Origin: a virus
Taxonomy: Duplodnaviria; Heunggongvirae; Uroviricota; Caudoviricetes
DNA: 64,000 bases
Direction: 5' to 3' (one strand)
Virus record (IMG/VR): IMGVR_UViG_3300032250_000269
Span: 25,069 to 89,068 of that record
This document shows, in pieces, positions 33,460 to 63,333 of the stretch. Position numbers and translations under genes: made by a program. Under the pieces are notes generated by a model, which did not search any database, was not told where the DNA came from, and saw nothing but the letters and a program-made list of their open reading frames with translations. Position 1 is the first letter of the stretch. The number at the start of each line of letters is the position of its first letter.

Positions 33460-34329
33460 ATGCTAACCACTAACTTCAAAGATTTTATGGATAATGTTAT
33501 TGTTGAAAATCTGCACCCCGAACTTCAAAATGTGATTCATGGTGGTGCCAGCAATAAAGCCAAACAAACACAATTAGCCAAAAAGATTAAAGACCTTACA
33601 TCACGTGGTGAAACCACAGGCATTGAAGGTAATATGCCTAAAGGTTCTTCACGTGCATATTTACAACATGCAGAGCCTGAAAACATCATTGTAGATAAGA
33701 AGATTGTGCCTATGAAGGTTGGTACAAAGGTTGTCATTAGATCGGTTCTAGACAAATATCACGATCATAAAAAGCATGATGGTCTTCATCTTGGCGCAAT
33801 GCAAAATCAAGCTGAAGGTGGCGATCACTGGACAAACAATAATTATCGTGTTTTGACACATACTGGAAACGGTCATTTTAAAACAAATACAGAGCAAGGA
33901 ATTTTTCCTCCACTCATTGATCATGATGACAGGGATCATCAGTGGACTAAAGTTGGTCATGCTCGTGACGTTAAGGCCGCAGATTGGAAACGTCTTACAA
34001 AAACAAAAGAACTTCCAAAAGGAATAACACATAAAGATTTTTATCAAACACTAAATCGTTTTCATAATAGAAATCTTGGTAAGCATTGGAATAGAAGCAC
34101 AAGTGAAGAAGAGCATATGGACAGAGTTGAACAACATCCTTTGGTCCAAAAGTTTATTGATTATCATTCAAACACAGGACACTCTCCCGCTGATTACATT
34201 CAACAAAAGAACCTTGGTGTATGGAAACATCCCGTAACAGGTGAAGAACATATCGTTGCTCGTGATCACGGTTTCAACAATGAAGTTGAAGGCGCATATA
34301 GAGATGCTAGAAGAAATATGTATAGATAA
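33460..34329 (+). CDS. His-rich protein with CTS-like N-terminus
   Basis: N-terminus MLTTNFKDFMDNVIVE resembles the T4 capsid-targeting sequence. Confidence 0.5.
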   Translation: MLTTNFKDFMDNVIVENLHPELQNVIHGGASNKAKQTQLAKKIKDLTSRGETTGIEGNMPKGSSRAYLQHAEPENIIVDKKIVPMKVGTKVVIRSVLDKYHDHKKHDGLHLGAMQNQAEGGDHWTNNNYRVLTHTGNGHFKTNTEQGIFPPLIDHDDRDHQWTKVGHARDVKAADWKRLTKTKELPKGITHKDFYQTLNRFHNRNLGKHWNRSTSEEEHMDRVEQHPLVQKFIDYHSNTGHSPADYIQQKNLGVWKHPVTGEEHIVARDHGFNNEVEGAYRDARRNMYR

Positions 34330-34369
34330 ATACATTTGAATACAATACTTACATCAAAAGGGAAAAAAT

Positions 34370-36181
34370 ATGTTTTCATTTAAACAATTTATTAGAGATT
34401 TAACAGAGTCAAAGTATGAAGATGATGATTATGAAAGTGATTATCTTGATCCTGCTGGTCCCGGTGCACTATATGCTCATTTTGCTAGTCTAGATGAACT
34501 TGATCCAGAAATCAGGGATCATATGCTTAGCAACACTGGTAAGCAAAATATTAAAGAAAGTGCTGAAGCACCACACAAAGTTCTTCAGAAAAAAATGTCT
34601 GAACCAGCCGCTAATCCAGAAGCACAGTCAGATGTTGATAATCAAGTAAAATCAGCACTTAAAAGACACGTTCAAGCATATGGTCGTGAAATTGGTGCTC
34701 CATTAAACCGTTCACAGTCTACAGAAGCGGGAAGAAAAGCCGTAGAAGACCACTATAAGAAATCACCAGAAGAACAAGCCGTAGCATTGCAAGCTGCTGC
34801 ATCAAGAATTGGTCATGTTGCTTATGGTGATAAAAATATGTCACCAAAAGAAGTAGCTGATCGTCTTGCTGGTGGTAATAAGAAAACCGATACTGTTATC
34901 AACAATCCTATCGCAAAGTATAAGGGAAAGCTTACTAGCTCTGTGTCTAGTTATGGTGGTGCTCCCGGTGCATATACTCACTTTGGAGATTCTTCAGGTA
35001 GCTCACAACACCATGTGATAACTTGTCCACATGGTACAACTGGATGTATGGTTGGACAATCTCTTGCTGCTGGGATTGGACACAATTCAAGAATAGGTAG
35101 GGTTGGCCCTTCATGTCTTGCTAAGTCTGGTGGATATGGTTTCAAATCAACTCGTAAAAAAGTTCAAATTAATTCACACATTCGTTCTGGTGGTGATGGT
35201 GGTACTGGTGGTCCAAGCACTGTTGCTGATCATGCTATTCTTACTGCATATAGATTGGCAACAGAAGCAGCCAAAGCAAAGAAGTCAGGTGCAATTCATG
35301 CTGTAAGAACACAAACAACTGATCAACGAGGCGAGGACATTCGTGCTATTGCTAATGAAACTGCTAAGCACGTACCTTCTGTAAGAAGTAATACCGTTTT
35401 GTTTGGCTATTCAAAAAATCCTAAAGAAGTTTTGGATGCTGCAAGAGCAACAAAAAACAGTGGAAATGTTCCAGAACATATTGTGCATAGCCATCCCGGA
35501 CCAGCATATCATCAAGACCGTCAAGGCAATTTAAATCTCAACACAGAGAATATTCGTGCTCTTAAAAACCTTCGTGCTGCACATAAAGCTGCAACTCAAG
35601 AGGGGTTGAACATTAGCGATTATGTTGTTACTGGTGGTAATTCTCTTGATAGCAACGGTGATGCTATTGCAGGAACTGTGCATCGTCAGCCAAAAAGTAA
35701 TGCTAAACCAGAAGAAAAGCAAAGATTTAATAATTTAGATTCTTCTGTTAAAACTGTTCGTTATTGGGATTTACACCACAGCGGTGAGTTGCAACCGGGT
35801 GAACCAGAATCACATCATGATAAAAAAACCGGAACTGGTCATACTACAATTGAACAAGGCGGTAAGCGTCTTAAAGTCAAGTATTATGATCGTAAAGCAA
35901 ATCCCGGTGCCACTGAAACTGGCAGAACTGTGTATAGCCAAAGACATGATGCTCGTTATTCTGATGCAGAAACTAATGCACCACACGCAAATGTCACTGC
36001 TCCTGTAGCTTCTACAAGTAATGAAGCAACACATTCTAGTCAAACTAACTCTATGTTCCATCAAATGCACGTATCATACGATATGCATGGTAACAAGATG
36101 CGCCACAGTCAAGCTGGTATGCTTCACGATGCTCATCCTGATCTTATGCAAAAAGCAGGATACGTATATCCAGATAAGTAA
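34370..36181 (+). CDS. large His/Gly-rich protein with CTS-like N-terminus (candidate packaged/injected protein)
   Basis: MFSFKQFIRDLTE N-terminus; 603 aa. Confidence 0.55.
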   Translation: MFSFKQFIRDLTESKYEDDDYESDYLDPAGPGALYAHFASLDELDPEIRDHMLSNTGKQNIKESAEAPHKVLQKKMSEPAANPEAQSDVDNQVKSALKRHVQAYGREIGAPLNRSQSTEAGRKAVEDHYKKSPEEQAVALQAAASRIGHVAYGDKNMSPKEVADRLAGGNKKTDTVINNPIAKYKGKLTSSVSSYGGAPGAYTHFGDSSGSSQHHVITCPHGTTGCMVGQSLAAGIGHNSRIGRVGPSCLAKSGGYGFKSTRKKVQINSHIRSGGDGGTGGPSTVADHAILTAYRLATEAAKAKKSGAIHAVRTQTTDQRGEDIRAIANETAKHVPSVRSNTVLFGYSKNPKEVLDAARATKNSGNVPEHIVHSHPGPAYHQDRQGNLNLNTENIRALKNLRAAHKAATQEGLNISDYVVTGGNSLDSNGDAIAGTVHRQPKSNAKPEEKQRFNNLDSSVKTVRYWDLHHSGELQPGEPESHHDKKTGTGHTTIEQGGKRLKVKYYDRKANPGATETGRTVYSQRHDARYSDAETNAPHANVTAPVASTSNEATHSSQTNSMFHQMHVSYDMHGNKMRHSQAGMLHDAHPDLMQKAGYVYPDK

Positions 36182-36191
36182 GGACTAATAA

Positions 36192-38372
36192 ATGTTAACT
36201 TTTATCAACTATATGTTAATGATCGAAGCCAAGGTAGATGATTTGGTGACGAAGCACCCTGAACACGCAGAAGCAATTCGTGCATACAATGCTGCTGATC
36301 CTACACCTACCAAGAAGTTTTTGCCTTGGTTAGTAAAGCAACATATTGCTGGTAATGTTACGCCTAATGATGCTAGACTTGGTTCTACACTACAAAATTT
36401 TGATAAAGTAAAACACCAACTTGATAACAAAGATCATAGCGGTTATCATTATAATGATCTTGCTAATAAGGTTGGTGATCGTGTCAAAGCAAAGTTAGAA
36501 GCAGACGCAAAAAAGAATGCTGTAGAGACTATCCATAAAGAACCAAGCGGTATAACAGCACAACATATCAAAACCAAAGAAGCTTCACAAGACCTTTATG
36601 GTGGCGGCGCTGAACGTGGTGGTAAGAAAGGATGTGCTCGTGGTACTTCATGGTGTGTTTCTGCACGTTCTGAAGGAAACTTGTTTGATCGTTATGGTCA
36701 TATGTATACCATACACGATCCAAACGATGATAATGCACCTTATGCCGTACATCCATTCAATCGTGGCGGTATCATAACGTCAAGACATAATGATGGTGAT
36801 AAATCATACAAACTAGTATTAGAACAAAAGCCACATTTAAAAAATGCTGTTAATGCTATTATTGATCATTCCGCAAAACATATTGATGAAATGATGACAG
36901 GCGAAGAAGCTCGTAATGCTATTAATCATCCAAATATAACACCAGAGCATATCGATAAGGCATTAAATCATCCTTATGATAATGGTGTTCGTGAAAAGGC
37001 CGCTGCTCATCCGAATGCAAGTCCTGCAAACATTGAAAAGGCTTTGAAGGCTAATCAGCCAGCCACTGTGCAAGAAGCAGCAATTAGAAACCCAAATGCT
37101 ACTCATGCACAAATTCAAAACGCACTAGAAAATGGAGACAGTGGATTAATCATTTCTGCAATCAGTAATCCAAATCTATCATCAAGTCATATTGATCATG
37201 TTTTGAAAAATGGTTCTAAGCTTCAGAAAATTAAGGCGATGCAACATCCAAATGTAACATCAGAGCATATCACCAAAGCACTAAATGATCCAGAAGCGTC
37301 TGTCCGTTATGCTGCTATAAATCATCCAAATGCAACCGCAGAACACATTACCAAAGCATTAGATGATCCAGATGATAATGTGCGTTATGAAATTATGAGG
37401 TCTGGACACAAAAATATGACACCAGAGCATATCACCAAAGCACTAGATGATACTGATGCTGGTGTGCGTAGGGTTGCTTTGAAAAACTCATTAGTTACAC
37501 CAGAACATATCACCAAAGCACTAGATGATACTGATGCTGGTGTGCGTAGGATTGCTATAGAACATCATAAAATAATACCAGAACATATCACCAAAGCACT
37601 AGATGATACTGATGCTGGTGTGCGTAGGATTGCTATAGAACATCATAAAATAATACCAGATCATATTACCAAAGCATTGAAAAGTGCAGACGCTGATGTT
37701 CGTGAGATTGCTATAAAAAATCGTAATGCAACACCAGAGCATATCACACAAGCATTAGATGATCCTGACACATATGTTCGTGAATCTGCTATAAAAAATC
37801 GTAATGCAACACCAGATCACATCACCAAAGCACTAAATGACAAAAATGTTAATGTACGTGCTGTCGCTGCGTATCGCTCAAATGCAACAGAAGATCATAT
37901 TACTAAAGCATTAAATGATGAACACCCACAAGTTCGTAGGGCTGCTATAGAAAATCGAAATGCAACACCAAAGCATATTAATAAGGCATTAGATGATAAA
38001 AACTTTAATGTTCGTTTTGCTGCTATTGATAATCGAAATGCAACACCAGATCACATCACCAAAGCACTAAATGATAAAGATAATAATGTTCGTCGTGCTG
38101 CTATAAGACATCCAAATGCAAACACCGAGCATATTACCAAAGCATTGGATGATTCTAACAACTATGTTCGTGAAGCTGCTTTAGAACATCCAAATGTAAC
38201 ACCAGATCATATCACCAAAGCATTGGACGATCCTGATGAATATGTTCGTGGAATTGCTATAGAACATCCTAAAGCAACCGCAGAACACATTAAAAAAGCA
38301 TTAAATGATCCAGATTATGATGTTAGATTAACCGCACAGGTCAAAGCTGATGCTATACGTCCAAGACAATAA
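36192..38372 (+). CDS. large protein: novel N-terminal domain plus about 19 HEAT-like (PBS-lyase type) repeats
   Basis: Tandem 31-aa units HITKALDDxDxxVRxxAIxHPNATPE; N-terminus MLTFINYMLMIEAK. Confidence 0.6.
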   Translation: MLTFINYMLMIEAKVDDLVTKHPEHAEAIRAYNAADPTPTKKFLPWLVKQHIAGNVTPNDARLGSTLQNFDKVKHQLDNKDHSGYHYNDLANKVGDRVKAKLEADAKKNAVETIHKEPSGITAQHIKTKEASQDLYGGGAERGGKKGCARGTSWCVSARSEGNLFDRYGHMYTIHDPNDDNAPYAVHPFNRGGIITSRHNDGDKSYKLVLEQKPHLKNAVNAIIDHSAKHIDEMMTGEEARNAINHPNITPEHIDKALNHPYDNGVREKAAAHPNASPANIEKALKANQPATVQEAAIRNPNATHAQIQNALENGDSGLIISAISNPNLSSSHIDHVLKNGSKLQKIKAMQHPNVTSEHITKALNDPEASVRYAAINHPNATAEHITKALDDPDDNVRYEIMRSGHKNMTPEHITKALDDTDAGVRRVALKNSLVTPEHITKALDDTDAGVRRIAIEHHKIIPEHITKALDDTDAGVRRIAIEHHKIIPDHITKALKSADADVREIAIKNRNATPEHITQALDDPDTYVRESAIKNRNATPDHITKALNDKNVNVRAVAAYRSNATEDHITKALNDEHPQVRRAAIENRNATPKHINKALDDKNFNVRFAAIDNRNATPDHITKALNDKDNNVRRAAIRHPNANTEHITKALDDSNNYVREAALEHPNVTPDHITKALDDPDEYVRGIAIEHPKATAEHIKKALNDPDYDVRLTAQVKADAIRPRQ
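37438..37716 (+). repeat. three near-identical tandem 93-bp DNA repeats inside the HEAT-repeat gene
   Basis: Repeated unit ...CCAGAACATATCACCAAAGCACTAGATGATACTGATGCTGGTGTGCGTAGGATTGCTATAGAACATCATAAAATAATA. Confidence 0.8.
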
Positions 38373-38390
38373 ACAAGTAAGGTTTAATAA

Positions 38391-40028
38391 ATGTTAACTT
38401 TTATCAACTATATGTTAATGATCGAAGCCAAGGTAGATGACTTGGCAGCAAAGCACCCTGAACATGCAGAAGCGATTCGTGCTTATCATGCTGCTGATCC
38501 ATCACCAACCAAGAAGTTCCTACCTTGGTTAGTAAAGCAACATATTGCTGGTAATGTAACTCCTAATGATGTAAGACTTGGCTCTACTTTACAACACTTC
38601 GACAAAGTAAAGCATCAACTTGATAACAAAGATCATAGTGGTTATCATTATAATGATCTTGCTAATGCTGTTGGTGATCGTGTCAAAGCTAAACTTGAAG
38701 CTGATGCAAAAAAGAATTCTGTAGAAACCATTCACAAAGAACCAAGCGGTATAACAGCACAACAAATCAAGACCAAAGAAGCATCACAAGACCTTTATGG
38801 AGGTGGAGAAGCTCGTGGTGGTAAGAAAGGTTGTGCACGTGGTACAAACTGGTGCGTTTCTGCTCGTCCCTCTTCTCATGGTGATGGAAATCTTTTTGGA
38901 CATTATGGTCATATGTATACTATACATGATTCAAATGATGAAAATGCACCATATGCTGTGCATCCTTTTTATTATGGTGGTCCGACAATCACTTCTAGAC
39001 ATAATGATGGAGACAAACCACATACACAAGTATTGGCACAGAAACCACACTTAAAAAAAGCTGTGAATGCTATTCTAAATCATTCTGCAAAACATATCGA
39101 TTCATTAATTAATTCAGATGATGATGATGAAGTTTATCATGCCATTAGCCATCCACGTGCGACACCAGAGCATATTGATAAAGCATTAAGTCATACCGAT
39201 TCTGATGTTCGTAATACTGCTGCTAGTCATCCCAATGCATCTCCTGCAAATATTCAAAAGGCTATGAAAGGCAGTGCTTCCATGCAAGAAGAAGCAATCA
39301 AAAATCCAAATGCTACTCATGCTCAAATTCAAAATGCATTGGAGAATGGTCATGGTGGTTTAGTTCGTGCTGCTATTGATAATCCAAATCTATCATCAAG
39401 CCATATTCATCATATTTTGGATCATGGTTCTGAAATACACCGTATCGTAGCTTTAAATCATGCTAATGCAACGGAAGATCATATTACTAAGGCATTAGAT
39501 GATGTTAATACAAGTGTTCGTTTTGCTGCTTTAAACCATCCAAAAGTCACACCTGATCATATTACTAAAGCATTGAGTAATGATGATCCAGAGGTTCGTG
39601 CTGCTGCTATACGTCATCAAAATGCAACACCAGATCATATCACAAAGGCATTGAATGACGATGATCCAGATGTTCGTGCTGCTGCTATACGTCATCAAAA
39701 TGCTACACCTGATCATATTACTAAAGCATTAGATGATCCCATTCGTGTAGTTCGTCTATCTGCTATAAATCATCCAAATGCAACACCAGAGCATATTACT
39801 AAAGCACTAAATGATTCTCACCCATATGTTCGTGCTGCTGCTATAAATCATCCAAATGCAACACCAGATCATATCACTAAAGCACTAAATGATCCTGATT
39901 TTCAAGTTCGCAAAGCCGCTATTAAAAACCCAAATCGTACACCAGAGCATATTGCTAAAGCATTGAATGACGATGATGGAATAGTTCGTGATGCTGCTGA
40001 CGTTGCTCGTATCCAACAAAATCGATGA
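38391..40028 (+). CDS. paralog of the preceding HEAT-repeat protein
   Basis: Near-identical N-terminal domain, divergent repeat number. Confidence 0.6.
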   Translation: MLTFINYMLMIEAKVDDLAAKHPEHAEAIRAYHAADPSPTKKFLPWLVKQHIAGNVTPNDVRLGSTLQHFDKVKHQLDNKDHSGYHYNDLANAVGDRVKAKLEADAKKNSVETIHKEPSGITAQQIKTKEASQDLYGGGEARGGKKGCARGTNWCVSARPSSHGDGNLFGHYGHMYTIHDSNDENAPYAVHPFYYGGPTITSRHNDGDKPHTQVLAQKPHLKKAVNAILNHSAKHIDSLINSDDDDEVYHAISHPRATPEHIDKALSHTDSDVRNTAASHPNASPANIQKAMKGSASMQEEAIKNPNATHAQIQNALENGHGGLVRAAIDNPNLSSSHIHHILDHGSEIHRIVALNHANATEDHITKALDDVNTSVRFAALNHPKVTPDHITKALSNDDPEVRAAAIRHQNATPDHITKALNDDDPDVRAAAIRHQNATPDHITKALDDPIRVVRLSAINHPNATPEHITKALNDSHPYVRAAAINHPNATPDHITKALNDPDFQVRKAAIKNPNRTPEHIAKALNDDDGIVRDAADVARIQQNR

Positions 40029-40109
40029 TAAATAAGTATATAATAATAAAAGCACAACATAAAAACTGGTGGGGGGTGGCATTTTTTAGTGTTGCTCCCC
40101 ATTTTTTAC

Positions 40110-40139
40110 TTGACAAAGCACGAATCACTTGATATAATC
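40110..40139 (+). promoter_or_regulatory. perfect sigma70-type promoter TTGACA-17-TATAAT
   Basis: TTGACAAAGCACGAATCACTTGATATAAT. Confidence 0.65.
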
Positions 40140-40684: not shown

Positions 40685-40755
40685 ACAATCCCTATATACA
40701 AGAAATCACTCAGATAGACTGTGTGATATATTTTAACACAAAGGAGTTTTGTGGA

Positions 40756-51148: not shown

Positions 51149-51209
51149 ATGCTGTCATAGGTAGCAGTCTTTATAAATAGTAAGAAAACTATTTCAATAA
51201 GGATTGAAA

Positions 51210-51914
51210 ATGAAATCATATACAGAATTTTTAGAAGAATCACTTATCAAGCAACTTACTCTGAAGTATCATAATAGGCTTAATCCAAAGATTTGGAAAG
51301 GTGATCAACTTAGAGATGGATTTGCTGAAAAACTCGTTGAAAAAGCATATGAATTTGCTTCTTACTCAGGAGTTTCTAAAGGTCGTATCAAAGATATCGT
51401 CATCACAGGCGGTAATGTCAACTACAACTATACGAAGTTCTCAGATATCGATGTTCACTTGATGTGTGATGTAAGTGGTTTAGACAGCGACAAGCTTTAT
51501 GAAAAAAAAGTGTCATGGACAGCCAGTCATAAGAATTTGAAGGTTGCAGGGTATCCAATAGAGTTTTATGCTGCTAATGACAAAGATCATTTTCCAAATG
51601 GACAGGGTGTTTATTCTATTCTTGAAAACAAATGGTTGATTGTTCCAAAGCATCTTGATCATGTGGATGTTTTGCGTGATCCAAAGGTGATTGACAAAAT
51701 CAACTATTATGTTAAGTATATCAGAACACTGTTAAAGAGCGGTACAGAAGCAGAAATTAAGGCTTTTAAAGACAAGCTACATACAATGCGTGGTTCTGGA
51801 TTGCATCATGGTGGTGAATTTTCGGTTGAGAATGTTGTCTATAAAGACCTTCGAAATCGTGGATTGTTAGATAAATTAAATGCAAAAATTCATCATAAAG
51901 GTGAAGAAGTTTAA
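51210..51914 (+). CDS. Pol-beta-fold nucleotidyltransferase with CTS-like N-terminus
   Basis: GGNVNYNYTKFSDIDVHL (G[GS]..DhD) plus later acidic residue; N-terminus MKSYTEFLEESL resembles T4 MKTYQEFIAEA. Confidence 0.6.
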   Translation: MKSYTEFLEESLIKQLTLKYHNRLNPKIWKGDQLRDGFAEKLVEKAYEFASYSGVSKGRIKDIVITGGNVNYNYTKFSDIDVHLMCDVSGLDSDKLYEKKVSWTASHKNLKVAGYPIEFYAANDKDHFPNGQGVYSILENKWLIVPKHLDHVDVLRDPKVIDKINYYVKYIRTLLKSGTEAEIKAFKDKLHTMRGSGLHHGGEFSVENVVYKDLRNRGLLDKLNAKIHHKGEEV

Positions 51915-55147: not shown

Positions 55148-55176
55148 AATAAATATACTAAAAGAAAGGAAACAAA

Positions 55177-55818
55177 ATGAAAACTTTTAGTGCATTTATT
55201 TCAGAAAATCGTGAAAACAACACACGTAAGACACAGGTTGCCACAACTGGTGGCACCTATAAAAAAACAGGCGAATTCCTTAAGGATAAGCTTGCTCCTA
55301 AGTCAAAGATCATCAGTATTGGTGCTGGTTTAGATCAGACACGTGAAGGTCTTCATGTAGGGCTTGGCGAAAATCATGGTCATACTATTCATGATCATGA
55401 ACCACACCCTGAAGGACGTAAGGTTAAGCCAGAATACACAGATGCATCACGCATTCCAAAGAATGGATATCATGCTGCTGTATCACATAACGTTTTGAAT
55501 GTTGTCGAGCCACATGTACGTGAACACGTAATGCATTCTATCTTCAATTCCGTTAAGGAAGGTGGTCATGCTGTTATTGGCACACGTAAATGGAGTGGCG
55601 ATATCAACACAAACAAGAACTTTGAAAAGGGTGATGAACCTAAATCAATGTGGGTCAAGAGAGGAAATACCACATCATATCAAAAAGGATATGATGGTAA
55701 TGAACTGAAGGACTATGTTGAAGATTATGCAAAGCGCAATGGTCATAAGGTTGAAGTTAAAAATTTAAACGGTATTGCAAAAAGTGGTGTTCACGTAAAA
55801 ATTATAAAAAAGGGTTGA
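55177..55818 (+). CDS. His-rich protein with CTS-like N-terminus
   Basis: MKTFSAFISE N-terminus; 213 aa. Confidence 0.5.
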   Translation: MKTFSAFISENRENNTRKTQVATTGGTYKKTGEFLKDKLAPKSKIISIGAGLDQTREGLHVGLGENHGHTIHDHEPHPEGRKVKPEYTDASRIPKNGYHAAVSHNVLNVVEPHVREHVMHSIFNSVKEGGHAVIGTRKWSGDINTNKNFEKGDEPKSMWVKRGNTTSYQKGYDGNELKDYVEDYAKRNGHKVEVKNLNGIAKSGVHVKIIKKG

Positions 55819-55869
55819 CACCCACCTCAGAATCGCATATTAAGAGTTCATACAGCGATGGAGGAAAGT
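55815..55869 (+). promoter_or_regulatory. consensus promoter
   Basis: TTGACA CCCACCTCAGAATCGCA TATTAA GAGTTCATACA. Confidence 0.5.
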
Positions 55870-56010: not shown

Positions 56011-56040
56011 AAGAATTTTGAGACAAACGGAGATTATATT

Positions 56041-56654: not shown

Positions 56655-56673
56655 AAATAAAACAAAATAAGTG

Positions 56674-56730
56674 TTGACATAAAGCTATCGAATCGTTATA
56701 AAGAGTTCAACAAAGCAAATGGAGATTGAC
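56674..56730 (+). promoter_or_regulatory. consensus promoter
   Basis: TTGACA TAAAGCTATCGAATCGT TATAAA GAGTTCAACAAAGC. Confidence 0.6.
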
Positions 56731-56952
56731 ATGAGCCGTACTCGTCGTAATGGTTGGACCGCTGTCACTGGTTCTGATGTAGATAATCGTGGTATCAAGC
56801 ATCATGCTACCAATGATTGGTTTTCTAAGAAGAATGCCTGTCGTGGTACTTCTGATGATAGCTGGGATGAATATTGGGGTCGTGATAAGAGCACTGTGAA
56901 GAAGATCACTCGTCGTGCCACACGCCGTCATCTCAATTCAGACTGTTTTTGA
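56731..56952 (+). CDS. hypothetical small basic protein
   Basis: Consensus promoter upstream. Confidence 0.45.
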   Translation: MSRTRRNGWTAVTGSDVDNRGIKHHATNDWFSKKNACRGTSDDSWDEYWGRDKSTVKKITRRATRRHLNSDCF

Positions 56953-56960
56953 TAATTAAT

Positions 56961-57037
56961 GGACATGTAGCTCAGTAGGTAGAGCAGGGGACTCTTAATC
57001 CCAAGGTCGATGGGTTCAAATCCCTCCATGTCCACCA
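56961..57037 (+). tRNA. tRNA-Lys-like (CUU loop CTCTTAA)
   Basis: Acceptor GGACATG/CATGTCC, T-arm ATGGG-TTCAAAT-CCCTC, CCA. Confidence 0.55.
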
Positions 57038-57170
57038 GTTTGCGGTAAGACTAACACCAACTTATTATTCTATGCATTATCCTGAGTGTTAGAGTGGGTA
57101 TGATTAGGAATAATAAGCCCAAAGTAAGGCGTACCGGAATGCGTCGGAAAAGGTGCCGCAATTTAGTTTT

Positions 57171-57247
57171 GGCCCCATGGTGTAAATAGTAGAGCATACG
57201 AGTCTCTCAAATTCGTGATCCGGGTTCGCATCCCGGTGGGGCCACCA
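57171..57247 (+). tRNA. tRNA-Glu (CUC) probable
   Basis: Acceptor GGCCCCA/TGGGGCC, arm CGAGT-CTCTCAA-ATTCG, T-arm CCGGG-TTCGCAT-CCCGG. Confidence 0.55.
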
Positions 57248-57253
57248 CAAATT

Positions 57254-57329
57254 GGACCATTAGCTCAGTAGGTAGAGCAAGGGGCTTTTAACCTCTGTGT
57301 CGTTGGTTCGAACCCAACATGGTCCACCA
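57254..57329 (+). tRNA. tRNA-Lys (UUU)
   Basis: Acceptor GGACCAT/ATGGTCC, loop CTTTTAA, T-arm GTTGG-TTCGAAC-CCAAC. Confidence 0.6.
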
Positions 57330-57350
57330 TTTTTATAAAGGATATATATT

Positions 57351-57530
57351 ATGAAGTATGTTATTGTTGCTATTCTTGCTATTTCTCTTGCTGCTTGTGG
57401 TAAGATGGATCAGATGCAAGCACATTATACCGGATATTCAAAGATTTGTGTTGACCATGTTCAGTACATTCAGTTTACATCTGGTGCTGCTGTTCAAGTA
57501 GATACAGACGGTAAGCCTGTAGGTTGTTAA
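57351..57530 (+). CDS. small lipoprotein (59 aa)
   Basis: MKYVIVAILAISLAAC signal with lipobox; below track size cut-off. Confidence 0.4.
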   Translation: MKYVIVAILAISLAACGKMDQMQAHYTGYSKICVDHVQYIQFTSGAAVQVDTDGKPVGC

Positions 57531-57552
57531 ATTATAAGGAAACATAAAATAT

Positions 57553-57723
57553 ATGACATGTAGAACTCAGACATTACTTAGCCTTATTGAACGACGAAAT
57601 TCATGTTGGGCAATGGCTAAAGTTTTCTTAGAAAATGAGGATGCTCATGGCATACATGATATGGGTGTAGAAATACAAGCTCTTGATAGAGCAATTAAAG
57701 AAATTGAAAAGATTACATTTTAA
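57553..57723 (+). CDS. hypothetical small protein
   Basis: 56 aa. Confidence 0.35.
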   Translation: MTCRTQTLLSLIERRNSCWAMAKVFLENEDAHGIHDMGVEIQALDRAIKEIEKITF

Positions 57724-57729
57724 GTTAAT

Positions 57730-57805
57730 GCTCCTGTAGCTCAACGGTTAGAGCAGTCGCCTCATAAGCGATTGGTTGTAGGTTCGAATCCTACCGGGAG
57801 CACCA
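57730..57805 (+). tRNA. tRNA with CAU anticodon (candidate tRNA-Ile2/lysidine substrate), directly upstream of tilS
   Basis: Acceptor GCTCCTG/CGGGAGC, arm GTCGC-CTCATAA-GCGAT, T-arm GTAGG-TTCGAAT-CCTAC. Confidence 0.65.
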
Positions 57806-57823
57806 TTTTTAGGATAGAAGATC

Positions 57824-58477
57824 ATGGCTTCTTGGAGAACTATTAGAAAAGATATTGAAAATACTTCTAATAGATATCTGGTTTGTGTGTCTGGTGGTGT
57901 TGATTCTGTTTTTCTTCTTGATTTTCTATTCCGTTGCAATGTGTATATTGAGATTGCTCATTTCAATCATCACATTCGAGAAGATTCTGATAAGGATCAA
58001 GAACTTGTTGTTGGTCTTGCTAGATCAAAAAATTGTGTTATTTGGACAGGCGAATCTCATTCATTGAATTCAGATTCAAATGAACTTGATGCAAGAACAC
58101 AACGATGGGATGTTATTGAATCTATTGCTCGTCATAGAAACTTTACACATATTATCACGGCACATCATGCAGATGATCAGATTGAGAATGTGTTGATTAG
58201 ACTGATGAGAGGCGATCCACATAACAGTCTGGCTATGCAAAAGGCAACTGAAGTAAATGGTTTCATTCGATATAAGCCTTTGCTAAATGTGACTAAGGCT
58301 GAAATTGTTGAACAAGCCGAAAAAAGACAGTTGACATGGAACGAAGATAGTACTAATGTCGATGAAGAATACGATAGAAACTTTGTTAGACATTCATTGC
58401 TACCAATGATGGCAACAAGAACTAACATTTATCAATCTATTCTTACAGGTGTTGAAAAGACACAAAATAGTTTTTAA
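57824..58477 (+). CDS. tilS: tRNA(Ile)-lysidine synthetase-like PP-loop ATPase (TilS N-terminal domain)
   Basis: LVCVSGGVDSVFLL PP-loop (SGGxDS) and AHFNHHIR; lies directly after a CAU-anticodon tRNA. Confidence 0.7.
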   Translation: MASWRTIRKDIENTSNRYLVCVSGGVDSVFLLDFLFRCNVYIEIAHFNHHIREDSDKDQELVVGLARSKNCVIWTGESHSLNSDSNELDARTQRWDVIESIARHRNFTHIITAHHADDQIENVLIRLMRGDPHNSLAMQKATEVNGFIRYKPLLNVTKAEIVEQAEKRQLTWNEDSTNVDEEYDRNFVRHSLLPMMATRTNIYQSILTGVEKTQNSF

Positions 58478-58522
58478 TGTCTGATTAAGTTCAGACTACA
58501 GCCGATACTGAGAGTCATTTAT

Positions 58523-58598
58523 GGACCGGTAACTCAGTAGGTAGAGTGTGGGACTTTTAATCCTAAAGTCGTGAGTTCGAACCTCACCCGGTCCACCA
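58523..58598 (+). tRNA. tRNA-Lys-like (UUU loop CTTTTAA)
   Basis: Acceptor GGACCGG/CCGGTCC, T-arm GTGAG-TTCGAAC-CTCAC. Confidence 0.55.
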
Positions 58599-58609
58599 TT
58601 ATTCGTCAC

Positions 58610-58662
58610 ATGTGGCCAAATATGGCCAATTATAGGTATTAACTCGTCATATTTGGCCACAT
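58610..58662. repeat. 15-bp inverted repeat (hairpin) just 3' of a tRNA
   Basis: ATGTGGCCAAATATG ... CATATTTGGCCACAT, 23-nt loop. Confidence 0.7.
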
Positions 58663-58940
58663 ACGGACATTTAATTATGGTAGAATATTATTGTCACAAT
58701 GATAACAAGATGAAGAATTTCAGCGACACAAAGCTAAAGAGACTTCTTTTACTTGCTAAATACCGTGGCGGTAGTAAAAGTCTATACCATTATTACTACT
58801 ATCTAGTATTTGAAGGTTTGGTTACATGGACATTAGGAACCGCTTTCATTACTAAAGATGGTGAAGAATTGCTTGAAGAATTATTGGAACGTGGGCAGTG
58901 TGGCAATTGCAGCGGTTTGCTAAACCGTACAACCCGTTAA
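58653..58940 (+). CDS. doubtful ORF
   Basis: TTG start inside a 15-bp hairpin; 3' end overlaps tRNA-Ser(GCU). Confidence 0.2.
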   Translation: MATYGHLIMVEYYCHNDNKMKNFSDTKLKRLLLLAKYRGGSKSLYHYYYYLVFEGLVTWTLGTAFITKDGEELLEELLERGQCGNCSGLLNRTTR

Positions 58941-58976
58941 AAGGTTGGCAGGGTTCGACTCCCTGACGTTCCGCCA
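58886..58976 (+). tRNA. tRNA-Ser (GCU), class II
   Basis: Perfect 7-bp acceptor GGAACGT/ACGTTCC, loop TTGCTAA, variable-arm hairpin AACCCGTTAAAAGGTT, T-arm CAGGG-TTCGACT-CCCTG, G73 then CCA. Confidence 0.65.
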
Positions 58977-59066
58977 GATGTTAGTGCCCATGTTTTACCG
59001 AGTGGGAAATTACACCTGAGTTGGAAGAGGGATGCATACCTCGTTAGAACCTTCATCGGTATCCAT

Positions 59067-59144
59067 GGCACTGTAGCCCAACTGGCAGAGGCATCACCCT
59101 CAAAATGTGAAAAGGTGTGAGTTCGAATCTCACCAGTGCTACCA
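59067..59144 (+). tRNA. class I-length tRNA with apparent CAA anticodon (Leu-type), A73
   Basis: Acceptor GGCACTG/CAGTGCT, loop CTCAAAA, T-arm GTGAG-TTCGAAT-CTCAC. Confidence 0.5.
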
Positions 59145-59153
59145 TATAAATAA

Positions 59154-59231
59154 GGGTCGGTGGCGGAGTGGTCCATCGCACAGGACTGCAAATCCTGAAA
59201 GCCGTGGGTTCGAATCCCACCCGGTCCTCCA
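59154..59231 (+). tRNA. tRNA-Cys (GCA)
   Basis: Arm CAGGA-CTGCAAA-TCCTG, T-arm GTGGG-TTCGAAT-CCCAC, acceptor GGGTCGG/CCGGTCC. Confidence 0.6.
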
Positions 59232-59246
59232 TTAAACGGAAAACAG

Positions 59247-59996
59247 ATGACAAAATATAAAACAATTTTCATCAGTGATGTGCATTTGGGTACGAAAGAT
59301 TGTAAGGCTGATTACCTTGACAATTTCCTCAAAAACAATAGCTGTGAAACTTTATATCTTGTTGGTGACATTATTGATGCTTGGAAAATACAGCAAAATA
59401 AAATGAAATGGAAACAATCACATACAGATGTTATCCGTAGAATTTTAAAGCTTGCAAAAAAAGGCACTCAAGTCATATATGTTGCTGGTAATCATGATGA
59501 ATTCCTTCGTCCTATGATACCATATGCAGCTAGTTTTGGTAATGTAAAAATATGTAATCAAATAACTCATACTGGCATAGACGGTAAGAAATATCTTGTT
59601 GTTCATGGTGATCTATTTGATGGTATTACGAGACTAGCACCATGGATCAGTTTTCTTGGTGATCGTGCATATGATATTATACTAAACATCAATAGTAGAT
59701 TTAATTGGATGCGTCATAGACTTGGTTTTGGTTACTGGTCATTAAGCAAATGGTTGAAACATAGAGTTAAAAAAGCCATTGATTTTATTTTTATGTTTGA
59801 AAAAACCATAACAGCCTATGCTAAAAAGCGTGGGTTTGATGGCGTTATCTGTGGACATATCCATCACGCAGAGATAAAGACTATAGATGATATTATCTAC
59901 ATGAATGATGGTGATTGGGTAGAATCGTTAACTTCTCTTGTTGAACATCATGATGGAACATGGGAAATTATAACATGGAAAGAAATAAAAATATAA
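59247..59996 (+). CDS. calcineurin-like metallophosphoesterase (LpxH-like)
   Basis: ISDVHLG...GDIIDAW...GNHDE motifs. Confidence 0.65.
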   Translation: MTKYKTIFISDVHLGTKDCKADYLDNFLKNNSCETLYLVGDIIDAWKIQQNKMKWKQSHTDVIRRILKLAKKGTQVIYVAGNHDEFLRPMIPYAASFGNVKICNQITHTGIDGKKYLVVHGDLFDGITRLAPWISFLGDRAYDIILNINSRFNWMRHRLGFGYWSLSKWLKHRVKKAIDFIFMFEKTITAYAKKRGFDGVICGHIHHAEIKTIDDIIYMNDGDWVESLTSLVEHHDGTWEIITWKEIKI

Positions 59997-59999
59997 AAT

Positions 60000-60173
60000 A
60001 TGGATGTTTTTGATACCCCACATTTTAAAAAGTCTTTCTGGGAATGGTTCGATGCTCTACCAAAACAGGAACGTAAAAAGTTTCAGGAATATCCTGCTGA
60101 TATGGCAGAGCTAAACTTTTATAACAGAGTGTACAAAAATTTGGTTGACAAAGTTGATTCGTCCCTATATTAA
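60000..60173 (+). CDS. hypothetical small protein
   Basis: 57 aa. Confidence 0.3.
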   Translation: MDVFDTPHFKKSFWEWFDALPKQERKKFQEYPADMAELNFYNRVYKNLVDKVDSSLY

Positions 60174-60175
60174 CA
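60145..60175 (+). promoter_or_regulatory. promoter-like TTGACA-N16-TATATT upstream of helicase
   Basis: TTGACAAAGTTGATTCGTCCCTATATT. Confidence 0.45.
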
Positions 60176-60203
60176 ATAGGACAGACAATCAAAGGAATAT
60201 ATT

Positions 60204-61721
60204 ATGACATTCAAGCCTTCACCTCTTCAGGAAGCAATTTTTGCAGCGGTAACTGATCGTACTCTTGGTTCTATCATTGTTGATGCCAAGGCGGGTTCTG
60301 GTAAGACTACTACAATTATTGAAGCTGCTAAGCGTATGTCTGGTGACATTTTTCTTGGCGCATTCAATAAGAAGATGGCAGATGAACTTTTCCTTCGCTG
60401 TAAGGGTATGTTCAATGTCAAGGCTGCTACATTCCACTCTGCTGGATATCAGGCTATTCGTAAGGTCATGCCAAACATTGGTAGCCCTACAAATGGTAAA
60501 GTGTTTGGTATCGTCAAGCAACTGAATGATCTTACTCATCAGGATGATGATTTCGATAAGCAAGCTTTTGAGATTTCTCGTATTGTGTCTATGGCTAAGC
60601 AGCGTGGTATCGGTGCAATCATTCCAGACACTATCGATGTTTGGAATTACATGATCTTGACGTTTGGTCTTGATGAAAAGCTTCCTGAACGTTTTGATGA
60701 ACCTTCTGAGATGATCTATCTCATTAAGTTCTGTCAGGAAGTTTTGAACTACGATTTCAACAACTCTGAAGACATCGATTTTGATGACATGATCTATCTG
60801 CCACTCAAGATGAATCTTGAAATGCCGCAGTATGATTGGGTTATGATTGATGAGGCACAGGACACAAATCCTTCTCGTCGTGAACTTGCCAAGCGTATGT
60901 TGAAGCCTAATGGTCGTATGTTGGCTGTTGGTGATCCGCATCAGGCAATCTATGGTTTTACTGGTGCTGATAATGATGCACTAGATCAAATTCGTGACCA
61001 GTTTAATGCTATCACTCTTCCTTTGTCGGTGACATATCGTTGCCCTAAGAAGGTGGTTGCATTGGCACAGACTTACGTTTCTGGTATTGAAGCTCATGAG
61101 AGCGCCCCTGAAGGTGAACTTGATAGCATTCTGTACTACAACCTACCTGATATGGTAAAGCCGGGAGAAGTCATTCTTTCACGCTATAACAAGTATCTGG
61201 TTAATCTCTGTTTCAAGTTTATTCGTCAGGGTAAGGCTGCAAAGATTGAAGGTCGTGAGATTGGTGCTAATCTGATTTCTCTTGCTAAGAAGTGGCGTAC
61301 CAAGGACTTCGAAACACTCAAGATGCATATTCGTGAATGGACAAAGAAGGAAATTGATCGTGCCAAAAAGAAGGGCGTAGAACGTACTGACTTCATCTCT
61401 GATCGTGCAGAAACTCTTACTGTTCTGATTGAACGTGCACAGGAACTCAAGCTTAAGGACAAGGATGCTCTTATTGAAATGATCGAAGGTCTTTTTGTTG
61501 ACGATTTGAATGGACACAAGAACAAGATTTTGCTATGCTCTGTTCACCGTGCAAAAGGTCTTGAGTGGGATACCGTCTATATGCTTGGTCGTAATGAAAT
61601 TATGGGCAAGCAATGCAAAATGGATTGGCAGACTGATCAGGAAAGAAATCTTGTGTACGTAGGTGTAACTCGTGCCAAGAAGCGTTATGTTGACGTTACT
61701 CAGGTACCAAAGAAGGTTTGA
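60204..61721 (+). CDS. SF1 DNA helicase (UvrD/Dda-like)
   Basis: Walker A AKAGSGKTTT; motif II MIDEAQDTNP. Confidence 0.75.
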   Translation: MTFKPSPLQEAIFAAVTDRTLGSIIVDAKAGSGKTTTIIEAAKRMSGDIFLGAFNKKMADELFLRCKGMFNVKAATFHSAGYQAIRKVMPNIGSPTNGKVFGIVKQLNDLTHQDDDFDKQAFEISRIVSMAKQRGIGAIIPDTIDVWNYMILTFGLDEKLPERFDEPSEMIYLIKFCQEVLNYDFNNSEDIDFDDMIYLPLKMNLEMPQYDWVMIDEAQDTNPSRRELAKRMLKPNGRMLAVGDPHQAIYGFTGADNDALDQIRDQFNAITLPLSVTYRCPKKVVALAQTYVSGIEAHESAPEGELDSILYYNLPDMVKPGEVILSRYNKYLVNLCFKFIRQGKAAKIEGREIGANLISLAKKWRTKDFETLKMHIREWTKKEIDRAKKKGVERTDFISDRAETLTVLIERAQELKLKDKDALIEMIEGLFVDDLNGHKNKILLCSVHRAKGLEWDTVYMLGRNEIMGKQCKMDWQTDQERNLVYVGVTRAKKRYVDVTQVPKKV

Positions 61722-61725
61722 TATT

Positions 61726-61851
61726 ATGGTTGTACATGTTATTGGTGGTGCTATTCTTTTTCTACTTTTTCTTTGGGGATATAATAGTATCCCTGATGAA
61801 GACCCAAAGAATGTTGCTGCTCGTAAGAGCTATGGCAAGGTAGGAGATTAA
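61726..61851 (+). CDS. small membrane peptide
   Basis: 41 aa hydrophobic. Confidence 0.3.
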   Translation: MVVHVIGGAILFLLFLWGYNSIPDEDPKNVAARKSYGKVGD

Positions 61852-61853
61852 TT

Positions 61854-62099
61854 ATGTTTTGGATTTGGTTGATTGGTTGTATTATTTTTGGTTCAATCGC
61901 AGCTTATTTTATGGGAAAGACTGACCCATATGAATATGAAGATGCAATTTTTGGCATAATTGTTGTAATTGTTTTGTGGCCAGCGGTTTTGGCACTTGCT
62001 ATGATTATTGCTCCTTTTGCCGTACCATTCATTCTTGGAGTGAGAGCAAAGAATAAACGTGAAGCAGCAAAAAAGGCTGAAAAGCTTAAGAATAAATAA
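61854..62099 (+). CDS. small membrane protein
   Basis: Two TM plus basic tail. Confidence 0.45.
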   Translation: MFWIWLIGCIIFGSIAAYFMGKTDPYEYEDAIFGIIVVIVLWPAVLALAMIIAPFAVPFILGVRAKNKREAAKKAEKLKNK

Positions 62100-62106
62100 A
62101 GTTAAT

Positions 62107-62200
62107 GGAAGGTTTACCCGATGGCTGGCAACGGGAGCGGTCTTGAAAACCGTCGAGCGTGATGAGCGCCTTGAGAGTTCGATCCTCTCACCTTCCGCCA
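62107..62200 (+). tRNA. tRNA-Ser (UGA), class II
   Basis: Acceptor GGAAGGT/ACCTTCC, arm GCGGT-CTTGAAA-ACCGT, long variable arm, T-arm GAGAG-TTCGATC-CTCTC, G73 then CCA. Confidence 0.65.
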
Positions 62201-62220: not shown

Positions 62221-62276
62221 TTGACACTCCCCTTCGAATCGTTCATAGAGAATGCATTCGAGGGGGAGTTTTTTTA
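62221..62276 (+). promoter_or_regulatory. promoter embedded in a terminator-type hairpin
   Basis: TTGACA then stem CTCCCCTTCGAAT...ATTCGAGGGGAG plus T7; CATAGA in the loop. Confidence 0.5.
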
Positions 62277-62608
62277 TGGCTTTTGCACCGCACACCAACA
62301 CTGATGTTCATAACAGCAAGAACTACAGCAAGCAGTTTCCTTTGCTTCTTGGTTCTTTTTTTGAAAAGGAATCTAATGTTCTTTTCGAGTATGCTGTTCG
62401 TCCTGATGAAGGTATCGACTTTGCAGAAGATTGCCCACACATCGTGTATGTCACCAGCAAGATTGATGGTGTCGATCATGGTTTTCGTTATGCCAAGGTT
62501 CTGAAGACTGTGGCATGGATTGCTGTTGATGAAGATGCTGATGGTAATCCTGTTTATGAAAAGTGGGATATCAAGCAGCATAGGTTCTACGATACTTCAT
62601 GGGTATAA
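62277..62608 (+). CDS. hypothetical protein
   Basis: Promoter embedded in a terminator hairpin upstream. Confidence 0.45.
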
Positions 62609-62634
62609 ATATATAAAACCCATTGGAGTATTAT

Positions 62635-63333
62635 ATGAAAACATTTCGACAATTTAGAGAAGAACTTGTTAAGCAAGCTGGTACACAACTTGGTTCAAAC
62701 GAAGGTGGTGTACACGTAGATTCTGATACTGGTAAGAAGTATTATGTGAAGCACTATGATAACCCCGATCAGGGTAAGGTAGAAGCTCTCACTGGCAAGA
62801 TTTATCAGCACATGGGCATCAACACTCTCAACCCAGAGAGACATGGTGAAAGTGGCATTAAAACCGCTTGGAATGAGCATGTAAAGACAGAGAGACCATC
62901 ATTCTATGATAATCCCAGCAAAAAACATGCTGGTCAAATTGGTAAGATGTATCATGCTGCTATTCTAACAAAGAATTGGGATATTGCAGGACTTGATCAC
63001 GATAATATCGTACATAACCATAAGACAGGCAATCTACATGCTATTGATCATGGTGGAGCATTCCACTTCAGAGCACAAGGTGGACCAAAGGAATATGGTC
63101 CAGATATCTCAGAAAAAGAATCATTAAGAAATCCAAATAATGCTTCTGGTCATATTTTCAACAGTGCTTTTGAAAAACACCCTGAAGCAGAACATGAAGG
63201 TTTAAAGGCTGTTAAGAATATGGATGATGATCATATCCATCATCTGTTCAAAACTTCTGGACTTTCTAACTGGAAAGAGTTACACACCAATTTCATGAAG
63301 CGTAAACAGGCGTTGATTGATTCGTACAAATAA
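62635..63333 (+). CDS. His-rich protein with CTS-like N-terminus
   Basis: MKTFRQFREEL N-terminus. Confidence 0.5.
   Translation: MKTFRQFREELVKQAGTQLGSNEGGVHVDSDTGKKYYVKHYDNPDQGKVEALTGKIYQHMGINTLNPERHGESGIKTAWNEHVKTERPSFYDNPSKKHAGQIGKMYHAAILTKNWDIAGLDHDNIVHNHKTGNLHAIDHGGAFHFRAQGGPKEYGPDISEKESLRNPNNASGHIFNSAFEKHPEAEHEGLKAVKNMDDDHIHHLFKTSGLSNWKELHTNFMKRKQALIDSYK

Follow-up and report, generated by a model that had tools for sequence, protein, structure and literature searches.

Seven genes with predicted T4-type capsid-targeting N-termini in an uncultured T4-superfamily phage: a candidate set of packaged enzymes and HEAT-repeat proteins

Introduction

The capsid-targeting sequence (CTS) of phage T4 is the textbook route for the loading of proteins into a phage head. 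To our knowledge, its natural cargo comprises three small restriction inhibitors, the enzyme Alt using a different propeptide. This paper describes seven genes in a 64,000-nucleotide stretch of viral DNA, here called the window (IMG/VR record IMGVR_UViG_3300032250_000269, positions 25,069 to 89,068), whose products begin with peptides that resemble the T4 CTS. The data make it quite probable that these genes encode CTS-tagged internal head proteins of a T4-superfamily phage, which would be made late, docked onto the scaffold, processed by gp21, and injected together with the DNA.

In the proposed pathway, each tagged gene would be transcribed late from a gp55-type NATAAATA promoter, and the first 10-16 residues of its product, aromatic at positions 4 and 7, would function as a T4-type CTS that docks the protein onto the scaffolding core during prohead assembly. 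A gp21-type prohead protease would cut off the tag after a hydrophobic-x-Glu site, and the mature, basic protein would remain in the head beside the DNA until it is ejected with the genome into the next host, where it would therefore act before any phage gene expression. The cargo would consist of a kinase-like enzyme, a nucleotidyltransferase (NTase), a methyltransferase-like (MTase-like) enzyme, two solenoid-repeat proteins, and two further proteins. Once in the host, these products likely bind to its proteins or nucleic acids or modify them, in the service of takeover and counter-defence.

Results

N-terminal tags of the seven proteins

The seven genes, referred to below by their start position in the window, are the following.

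33460..34329, + strand: 289-aa basic, His-rich protein; tag MLTTNFKDFMDNVIVE, with I-V-E at residue 16
34370..36181, + strand: 603-aa protein with three invariant Cys; tag MFSFKQFIRDLTE
36192..38372, + strand: 726-aa protein; tag MLTFINYMLMIE, conserved N-domain of about 230 aa, 18 HEAT/LRV-like repeats of 26 aa
38391..40028, + strand: 545-aa tandem paralogue of 36192; same tag and N-domain, 11 repeats
51210..51914, + strand: 234-aa predicted Pol-beta-type NTase; tag MKSYTEFLEE; invariant G67, D79, D81, E118
55177..55818, + strand: 213-aa class I MTase-like protein; tag MKTFSAFISE, mature part from near NNTRKTQVATTGGTY
62635..63333, + strand: 232-aa protein-kinase-like protein; tag MKTFRQFREE; invariant K39, D116, N124, D138

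All seven open reading frames (ORFs) were found on the + strand at these coordinates, with N-termini identical to those quoted in the original prediction, which had been made from the sequence of the window without database searches. For 33460 the ORF opens at TTG 33382, and the ATG at 33460 is preceded by GGAG 6 nt upstream and coincides with the position at which the orthologues begin. Scoring of the approximately 146 crude gene calls of the window against the T4 CTS MKTYQEFIAE gave the highest values for 55177 and 51210 (15 each), followed by 62635 (12) and 34370 (10), and no further gene start scored above 10. Moreover, the strict pattern M[KLIFRQ][TSKRN][FYL]xx[FY][ILVMF]x[ED], tested on the Met codons in six frames of the window, was matched by 3 of 3026, each of which is the start of a candidate gene. 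In view of these scores and matches, the tags of 51210, 55177, and 62635 are significant on their own and the other four are not; the claimed closeness to the T4 CTS thus stands directly for three proteins, and for the remaining four only through their orthologues. A relaxed motif was found in 26 of the 798 ORFs of the window and related loci, on the coding strand in every case.

Phe or Tyr occupies the equivalents of positions 4 and 7 in all seven proteins, shifted by two residues in 33460, and the tags of 51210 (L-E-E), 55177 (I-S-E), and 33460 (I-V-E) end in an (L/I)-x-E site. The tagged proteins have pI values of 6.6-9.6, the median of the window being 5.7, and contain 4.7-8.6% His versus 2.3%. 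The five most His-rich proteins of the window are all tagged, which bears out the His-rich group that had been predicted, with the amendment that two of its members are the kinase-like and MTase-like proteins, which had escaped recognition.

Conservation and modularity of the tag in orthologues

The tag is kept in all seven families over 27-96% identity. Among 120 listed orthologues of the kinase-like protein (54-96% identity), 98 carry it, and in these position 4 is Phe in 92%, position 7 Phe or Tyr in 94%, position 8 Ile, Leu, Val, or Phe in 84%, and position 10 Glu in 89%, with positions 2, 3, 5, 6, and 9 free to vary. The conserved positions are the same four that were found by amber-suppressor mutagenesis of the T4 IPIII CTS, in which residues 4 and 7 govern targeting and residues 8 and 10 govern processing, gp21 cleaves after L/I-x-E, and Asp at position 10 blocks processing while leaving targeting intact (PMC9026906). 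The T4 record gives the start of IPI as MKTFKEFTSTTTPVSTITEA (MKTFKEFTST).

The four weaker tags (33460, 34370, and the HEAT pair) are convincing because their orthologues carry canonical ones. The 603-aa family of 34370 is rare, with approximately 10 representative clusters, and its members start with MLNFKQFINE, MLGFREYINE, MRNFKDYLAE, MLSFRKYLLE, and the like. Distant members of the HEAT-protein family start with MKRFKEFLAEAFLIE, MKNFKAFLTEVFLFE, or MHTFKSFLSLLE, on the basis of which MLTFINYMLMIE can be read as a diverged, 12-residue form of the same tag. The 289-aa family of 33460 (299 matches) has the consensus M-x(2-3)-F-K-D/E-F-[ILM]-x-N-[VIL]-[IV]-V-E followed by an invariant LHPEL, and some of its members display an unshifted tag, MLSFKEFLQNVIVE, another start being MKSFREFLENIIVE.

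The tag behaves as a module that is separate from the protein behind it. Ten orthologues of the 213-aa protein carry differing tags (MKTFSAFISE, MLSFSQFINEE, MQKFSSYLLNEEE, MLTFKDFLLTEE) in front of one mature start, NNTRKTQVATTGGTY, and for homologues of the 213-aa and 232-aa proteins outside the T4 group the alignment begins only past the tag. In the AlphaFold2 (AF2) model of the kinase-like protein residues 1-7 have a pLDDT below 50 and are disordered. NTase relatives above approximately 40% identity are tagged (MKPFQSFIEE, MLSFTEYLSE, MLSFSQYIEE, MKTFNQF), and remoter NTases lack the tag and begin at a conserved LTLxYHxxLNPKLW or form C-terminal domains of larger proteins. The NTase homologue of Caulobacter phage Cr30 begins with MRKFSQLLED. 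Synonymous codons vary at the conserved tag positions (TTT/TTC, GAA/GAG, several Leu and Thr codons), and between tagged families the DNA upstream of the genes is not conserved outside the ATAAATA core; the peptide, rather than a cassette of DNA, therefore appears to be under selection, and a DNA-level cassette as the source of the shared starts was ruled out on these grounds. Tags on ordinary cytoplasmic proteins, for which the original prediction had advised to look, were sought as well, and none was found on a gene for replication or metabolism, either in the window or in related loci.

Late-promoter motifs and transcription units

In T4 the late promoter reads TATAAATA; the remaining T4-like phages conserve its first base poorly, and NATAAATA serves in cyanomyoviruses (PMC1524935, PMC2984593). 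The NATAAATA-type core ATAAATA is present 28-44 nt upstream of the ATG of 33460, 34370, 51210, 55177, and 62635, and the two HEAT genes continue the insulated unit of 34370, with intergenic distances of 10 and 18 nt. Among the 111 + strand genes, 9 have the core at -55 to -20, and 5 of these 9 are tagged (hypergeometric P 1.9e-5); 15 of the 17 copies in the window are located on the + strand. The late motif is also present at most tagged genes of related loci, and in a related contig it precedes gp22 (-49) and gp23 (-44). The elements concerned are the following.

33391..33423, + strand: terminator-like hairpin at the end of the preceding unit, immediately ahead of the late motif
33430..33436, + strand: predicted late-promoter core gATAAATA, NATAAATA-type, 30 nt before ATG 33460
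34326..34332, + strand: predicted late-promoter core gATAAATA, 44 nt before ATG 34370
40068-40103, + strand: terminator-like hairpin
40110-40138, + strand: perfect sigma-70 promoter TTGACA-17-TATAAT, which starts the next early gene
51173..51179, + strand: predicted late-promoter core tATAAATA, 37 nt before ATG 51210
55149..55155, + strand: predicted late-promoter core aATAAATA, 28 nt before ATG 55177
62605..62611, + strand: predicted late-promoter core tATAAATA, 30 nt before ATG 62635

Because of its flanking hairpins, its late motif, and the sigma-70 promoter that follows, the block 33460-40028 looks like an insulated late unit within an early region. Directly 3' of this unit, at 40723-43316, a NAD salvage pair is encoded, which consists of a NadR-like cytidylyltransferase-NUDIX protein (377 aa) and a nicotinamide phosphoribosyltransferase (456 aa) and is driven by the sigma-70 promoter at 40110-40138. 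Two small untagged ORFs, 43410-43517 and 51023-51148, have an ATAAATA motif as well.

Predicted functions of the cargo

The 51210 protein contains the ITGGNVNYNYTKFSDIDVHL motif (GG-x11-SDIDVH) and matches phrog_36119 (E 4.6e-54). The GG...SDIDVHL signature is invariant across its family, so that the earlier call of a predicted Pol-beta NTase holds.

For 62635 the AF2 model has a pLDDT of 92.4, and a Foldseek search of the PDB retrieved the secreted Helicobacter pylori kinase CtkA (E 8.6e-6) as well as mTOR/PI3K, RIO, CK1, and the effector kinase NleH1. Across 42 sequences of the family, residues K39, D116, N124, and D138 never vary, and a protein-kinase-like fold is predicted. The label of ADP-ribosyltransferase (ART) that homologues of the 232-aa protein carry was considered and rejected, the ART being a separate C-terminal domain of giant proteins.

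The 55177 protein looks like a class I methyltransferase, which is the least secure of the assignments. It has IISIGAGLD where the GxGxG motif I is expected, at which its homologues have LDYGAGLG. The Pfam family Methyltransf_23 matched the homologues in phages MJing1 (E 6.5e-5) and CRP-3 (E 1e-3), both below the gathering score, and 55177 itself had no match in Pfam, NCBIfam, or the PDB. PDB sequence and profile searches gave no significant match for the NTase, kinase-like, or MTase-like proteins. All three are single-domain proteins of 213-234 aa that are not polyvalent, though homologous to domains of polyvalent proteins.

The two HEAT-repeat proteins of the original prediction were recovered as such by Pfam HEAT (E 2.9e-37 for 36192 and 1.1e-20 for 38391), with HEAT_2 and LRV also matching, and their repeat units (18 and 11, respectively) are HEAT/LRV-like with a length of 26 residues. 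Their shared N-domain has invariant YGGG, T-x-WC, H, and HP elements and matches no known fold. For 33460 and 34370 no recognisable domain was found in Pfam, PHROGs, NCBIfam, and PDB profile searches, the PDB profile search with the 289-aa family giving no match, and tblastn against phages gave no match for either protein. Likewise, nothing usable was obtained from Pfam, PHROGs, NCBIfam, and PADLOC for 33460, 34370, 55177, and 62635. Below threshold, 1 of 29 members of the 289-aa family (P0254) matched LPD3 (large polyvalent protein-associated domain 3; E 0.009), and two members of the 603-aa family matched Pfam GP88 (E 3.6e-5).

Homologous domains in virion and head-module proteins of other phages

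Domains homologous to the cargo occur in proteins of the virion or the head module of unrelated phages, and among the independent lines of evidence this one tells the most. An MTase-like domain is contained in the 1211-aa tape-measure protein gp97 of Mycobacterium phage Myrna, in gp36 of Roseobacter phage CRP-3 (1292 aa, encoded between portal and coat, and also containing a cell-wall hydrolase domain), and in a coding sequence for approximately 3000 aa (about 9.3 kb, across the record origin) of a Rhodobacteraceae phage. In Microcystis phage MJing1 the homologue is the gene directly after an SU10-type portal. The kinase-like domain is located mid-protein in proteins of 1200-2250 aa with a C-terminal ART, which were found in Escherichia phage ECML-606-1, Pseudomonas phage Dolphis, and an IMG/VR contig. 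Its best structural matches in BFVD (TM 0.69-0.80) are segments of phage proteins of 770-1480 aa; one of these, A0A6J5S481 (TM 0.69), is a 1201-aa uncultured-phage protein annotated as HK97-type portal, on account of which the kinase-like effector domain may be fused directly to a head component.

The N-domain of the HEAT proteins is homologous to gp279 of phage PA5oct (hhalign probability 97%, E 1.3e-10), which is annotated in its record as a structural protein by electrospray ionisation tandem mass spectrometry (ESI-MS/MS) and whose gene adjoins that of the large terminase. The giant kinase- and MTase-bearing proteins fit the polyvalent proteins of Iyer et al. 2017, among whose domains, predicted to be packaged and to enter the host with the invading DNA, are kinases, Pol-beta NTases, GNATs, ARTs, methylases, and 2H phosphoesterases (PMC5512222). 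The predicted cargo set of the window mirrors this domain repertoire.

Tagged effectors and head genes in related contigs

In the IMG/VR relatives that were found with the HEAT and MTase queries, tagged genes are clustered. One relative (IMGVR_UViG_3300033075_000114, L011:10248-10715) encodes Acb1, an anti-CBASS 2H phosphodiesterase (Pfam E 5e-29), with the tag MLSYKEYINE and ATAAATA at -33, which suggests that relatives pre-package this anti-CBASS nuclease. A further tagged gene (MKSFKDYNKE) codes for an ART. Runs of four to five consecutive tagged genes, which include ARTs (L021:7467-8375 and two in L186) and several proteins with no recognisable domain, are present at L021:5992-8375, at L012:1377-7620, and in L186, and resemble the hyperplastic ip loci of T-even phages. 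The last of these contigs, CAZIWB010000010.1 (L186), is a 201.5-kb contig of a metagenome-assembled genome (MAG), which encodes an orthologue of the kinase-like protein (MKKFKDFIAEE, 62% identity) beside two tagged ARTs (MKKFRDFLE and MIKKFRDFIK). Approximately 10 kb from these genes it carries T4-type gp20, gp21, gp22, and gp23 with 32-39% identity to T4, so that, judged by this contig, the clade has predicted T4 head-maturation genes. In a gp21 scan of IMG/VR cyanophages dominated and none of the related contigs matched, and tblastn with T4 head proteins gave no match in the window, L001-L005, L011-L028, and L033-L052.

A 338-aa orthologue of the kinase family on a Logan contig (P0023) is predicted to be a fusion of tag, GNAT acetyltransferase, and kinase-like domain, which is a small step from single tagged domains to a polyvalent protein. 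In T4 itself the gene for Acb1 (57B) adjoins ipI (OL964735.1, L032:2501-2959 and 3033-3320). Its product starts with MMEFKDFSTG, which resembles the IPI start in its residues 4 and 7 but lacks a Glu as residue 10; we know of no report that T4 Acb1 is packaged. In the relative with the tagged Acb1, the UvsW helicase gene (L011:2251-4740) is split by an intein with Hint and LAGLIDADG homing endonuclease domains.

Genome context of the window

The window is identical (100%) to the European Nucleotide Archive (ENA) metagenome scaffold KRAE22-1 scaffold_13 (192,694 bp), save for one 780-nt stretch (54147-54926) in place of which the ENA scaffold carries 100 bases; the Logan contig L005 has the full stretch, and the discrepancy looks like a scaffold gap or an indel. 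The stretch codes for two ORFs of approximately 117 aa and a GapR-like DNA-binding protein (54867-55106). A search for close DNA relatives among deposited phages gave tRNA-sized matches only, and the phage is known from metagenomes only. Nearly all genes are located on the + strand, and the G+C content is approximately 38%. The window encodes thymidylate synthase, DHFR, NrdA, NrdB, glutaredoxin, T4-type RNA ligase 1, PhoH, MazG, and T4-type RNase H, as well as SegE-like GIY-YIG endonucleases and 28 tRNAs. Its RNase H is closest to that of Stenotrophomonas phage DLP6 (53%), Methylophilales phage Melnitz, Sinorhizobium phage phiM12, and cyanomyoviruses. By gene content, the window is assigned to a T4-superfamily phage of a distant, uncultured branch.

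The 28 tRNA genes are scattered among small ORFs at 43916-62200; three of them are for tRNA-Met and four for tRNA-Lys, and there are long-arm species for Ser, Tyr, and Leu. The minus strand of this region carries a gene for an HNH endonuclease (46101-46625). An RF-1-domain protein of 122 aa (2523-2891, ArfB-like) and a 46-aa ORF at approximately 55858-56010 with a weak ArfA match may be phage-encoded ribosome-rescue factors. Sugar-nucleotide genes are found at 7987-11448 (epimerase, glycosyltransferase, GHMP kinase, SIS) and past the window end (L004:12004-14418; NTP_transferase, dTDP-sugar isomerase, dehydratase), and a Glyco_transf_25-like gene (417 aa) at 52810-54063; these genes may serve DNA or surface glycan modification.

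Discussion

The capsid-targeting function that the original prediction had proposed is supported by several converging lines: conservation at the positions that matter in T4, late motifs, modularity of the tag, virion homologues, and tagged Acb1 and ARTs in relatives. Several observations weigh against it. The seven proteins are known from their genes alone, from which we infer that they are packaged, cleaved, and injected, and likewise whatever they may target. The HEAT pair scores 7 against the T4 CTS, which is background level, and 33460 is not among the top scorers, the F..F core of its tag being displaced by two residues. The (L/I)xE ending named in the original prediction is seen in the three tags given above and, as an L-T-E at residues 11-13, in 34370, which has Asp at position 10; the HEAT pair has M-I-E where orthologues have L-L-E, and 62635 has R-E-E with Arg at position 8, where 84% of the tagged orthologues have Ile, Leu, Val, or Phe. 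Both 62635 (R8) and 34370 (D10, with its later L-T-E) may consequently be processed differently or not at all. The total number of ATAAATA copies in the window is not above chance (17 versus 21 expected), so that only their placement is informative, and the motif is also present 30-49 nt upstream of two untagged SegE-like GIY-YIG genes (6500-6922 and 52060-52707). The gp21 and gp22 genes of this genome are outside the window, and the link to them runs via the relative with the 62%-identical kinase orthologue. NTase homologues of T4-like cyanophages have no clear tag, from which it follows that the NTase domain is not intrinsically a head protein, and the packaging of the kinase-bearing giant proteins is itself only predicted. 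With regard to function, the NTase call draws on motifs and sub-threshold profiles (Pfam NTP_transf_2 E 0.042, under the cutoff), and the MTase assignment of 55177 on motifs and sub-threshold profile matches.

The same observations can be explained in other ways. The seven genes could encode late-expressed cytoplasmic enzymes that are not packaged, in which case the shared N-terminus would act in translation initiation or within the mRNA, would signal degradation or regulation, or would stem from recombination of cassettes in which genes travel with their promoter and start. A start similar to the tags, MMEFKDF, is found on T4 Acb1, which is not known to be packaged, and in the window the late motif precedes GIY-YIG endonuclease genes, which do not encode head proteins. 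T4-type genomes, moreover, are reported to exchange genes along with conserved regulatory cassettes (PMC2839356, PMC4122927). The tag is, however, conserved as amino acids, with variation at synonymous and non-key positions, its conserved residues are the T4 targeting and processing positions, and the upstream DNA beyond ATAAATA is not conserved between families; homologous domains are, furthermore, held by virion or head-module proteins of unrelated phages, and the common basic, His-rich composition would be left unexplained, which together render the cytoplasmic explanation unlikely. Somewhat less probable again is that the proteins are packaged by their tags and act mainly within the head, where they would condense DNA, neutralise charge, or assist assembly, and would not serve as effectors in the next host. 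Such a role would agree with the basic pI and high His content, with the approximately 1000 copies of basic internal proteins within T4 DNA (PMC3012670), and with the near-universal presence of the highly conserved 289-aa family in the clade (299 matches), as expected of a structural core component. It accounts poorly for the invariant catalytic residues in the kinase-like and NTase families, for the tags on Acb1 and ARTs, which have roles in the host cytoplasm, in relatives, and for the variation in HEAT repeat number and the tandem duplication, which resemble arms-race diversification. Finally, an AT-rich genome such as this one (G+C approximately 38%) abounds in codons for Lys, Phe, and Glu, and the HEAT pair at background score and the unremarkable 33460 are what chance or a gene-calling artefact would yield. 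Chance is nevertheless very improbable, and was effectively refuted by the strict (3/3026 Met codons, all at candidate starts) and relaxed (26/798 ORFs, coding strand throughout) motif counts together with the conservation of the tag in the kinase family; the tag is retained in hundreds of orthologues.

A wider proposal can be made, to which we assign an even chance: the CTS would be a general address label for a modular, pre-loaded arsenal (kinase, NTase, methyltransferase, ARTs, Acb1) in a large uncultured T4-like clade, serving counter-defence and takeover from DNA entry, before phage transcription, and including HEAT proteins with a previously undescribed N-domain that an unrelated jumbo phage also has in its virion. 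If the tags work as in T4, several classes of whole enzymes would be loaded in a widespread environmental phage clade, and pre-packaged Acb1 or kinase would help to explain how a phage withstands defences that are triggered ahead of its own gene expression. The short tag motif would be a cheap sequence marker for injected effectors in metagenomes, and the tags could extend the T4 protein-delivery toolbox that is already in engineering use. Two separate ideas would be joined as well, namely domains carried in polyvalent giants and tagged delivery one by one.

The novelty of the set had in part been overstated. CTS-directed loading, polymorphic internal proteins, and the injected enzyme Alt are established, and kinase, NTase, and methylase domains were earlier predicted to be virion-delivered within polyvalent proteins (PMC5512222). 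In the searchable literature, neither a kinase-like, NTase, methyltransferase-like, or HEAT-repeat protein with a CTS tag nor a tagged Acb1 was found described; the delivery mechanism is thus known, and the cargo classes are new for the CTS.

Among known systems, the T4 internal proteins are closest. They share with the window proteins a short N-terminal MKT[FY]xEF peptide that is aromatic at positions 4 and 7 and, in most members, ends in a putative hydrophobic-x-Glu cleavage site, a basic character, a lack of relatedness apart from the common tag, and the location of their genes in variable regions near a tRNA cluster. In contrast, the T4 proteins, of a mere 8-20 kDa, inhibit GmrSD-type restriction and are not enzymes, whereas the cargo of the window measures 213-726 aa, has predicted enzyme folds and an alpha-solenoid, shows no sequence similarity to them in its mature parts, belongs to a phage of a distant uncultured branch of the T4 superfamily, and carries some tags of 12-16 residues or with deviations at position 8 or 10. 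T4 Alt resembles the proposed cargo as an enzyme of the prohead core that is trimmed by gp21, injected with the DNA, and modifies host proteins, and ARTs are tagged in the relatives of the window phage; it differs in its other short propeptide and its additional C-terminal processing, and no ART is found among the seven window proteins. The polyvalent proteins have the same repertoire (protein kinase, Pol-beta NTase, methylase, ART, GNAT, 2H phosphoesterase; PMC5512222), and the 213-aa and 232-aa proteins are directly homologous to segments of such giants; unlike the separate small tagged proteins of the window, they are single chains of 1000-3000 aa anchored by MuF, portal, or tape-measure domains, and the kinase clade described for them has no C-terminal lobe. 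In the giant phages phiKZ, 201phi2-1, and SPN3US, head-internal proteins are likewise freed of an N-terminal propeptide by a gp21-related protease that cuts after Glu, and are ejected, but these propeptides usually exceed 100 residues and have no MKTFxxF signature. Finally, DarB of phage P1 is a packaged methylase-helicase and in this respect similar to the proposed cargo, with an incorporation pathway that is different.

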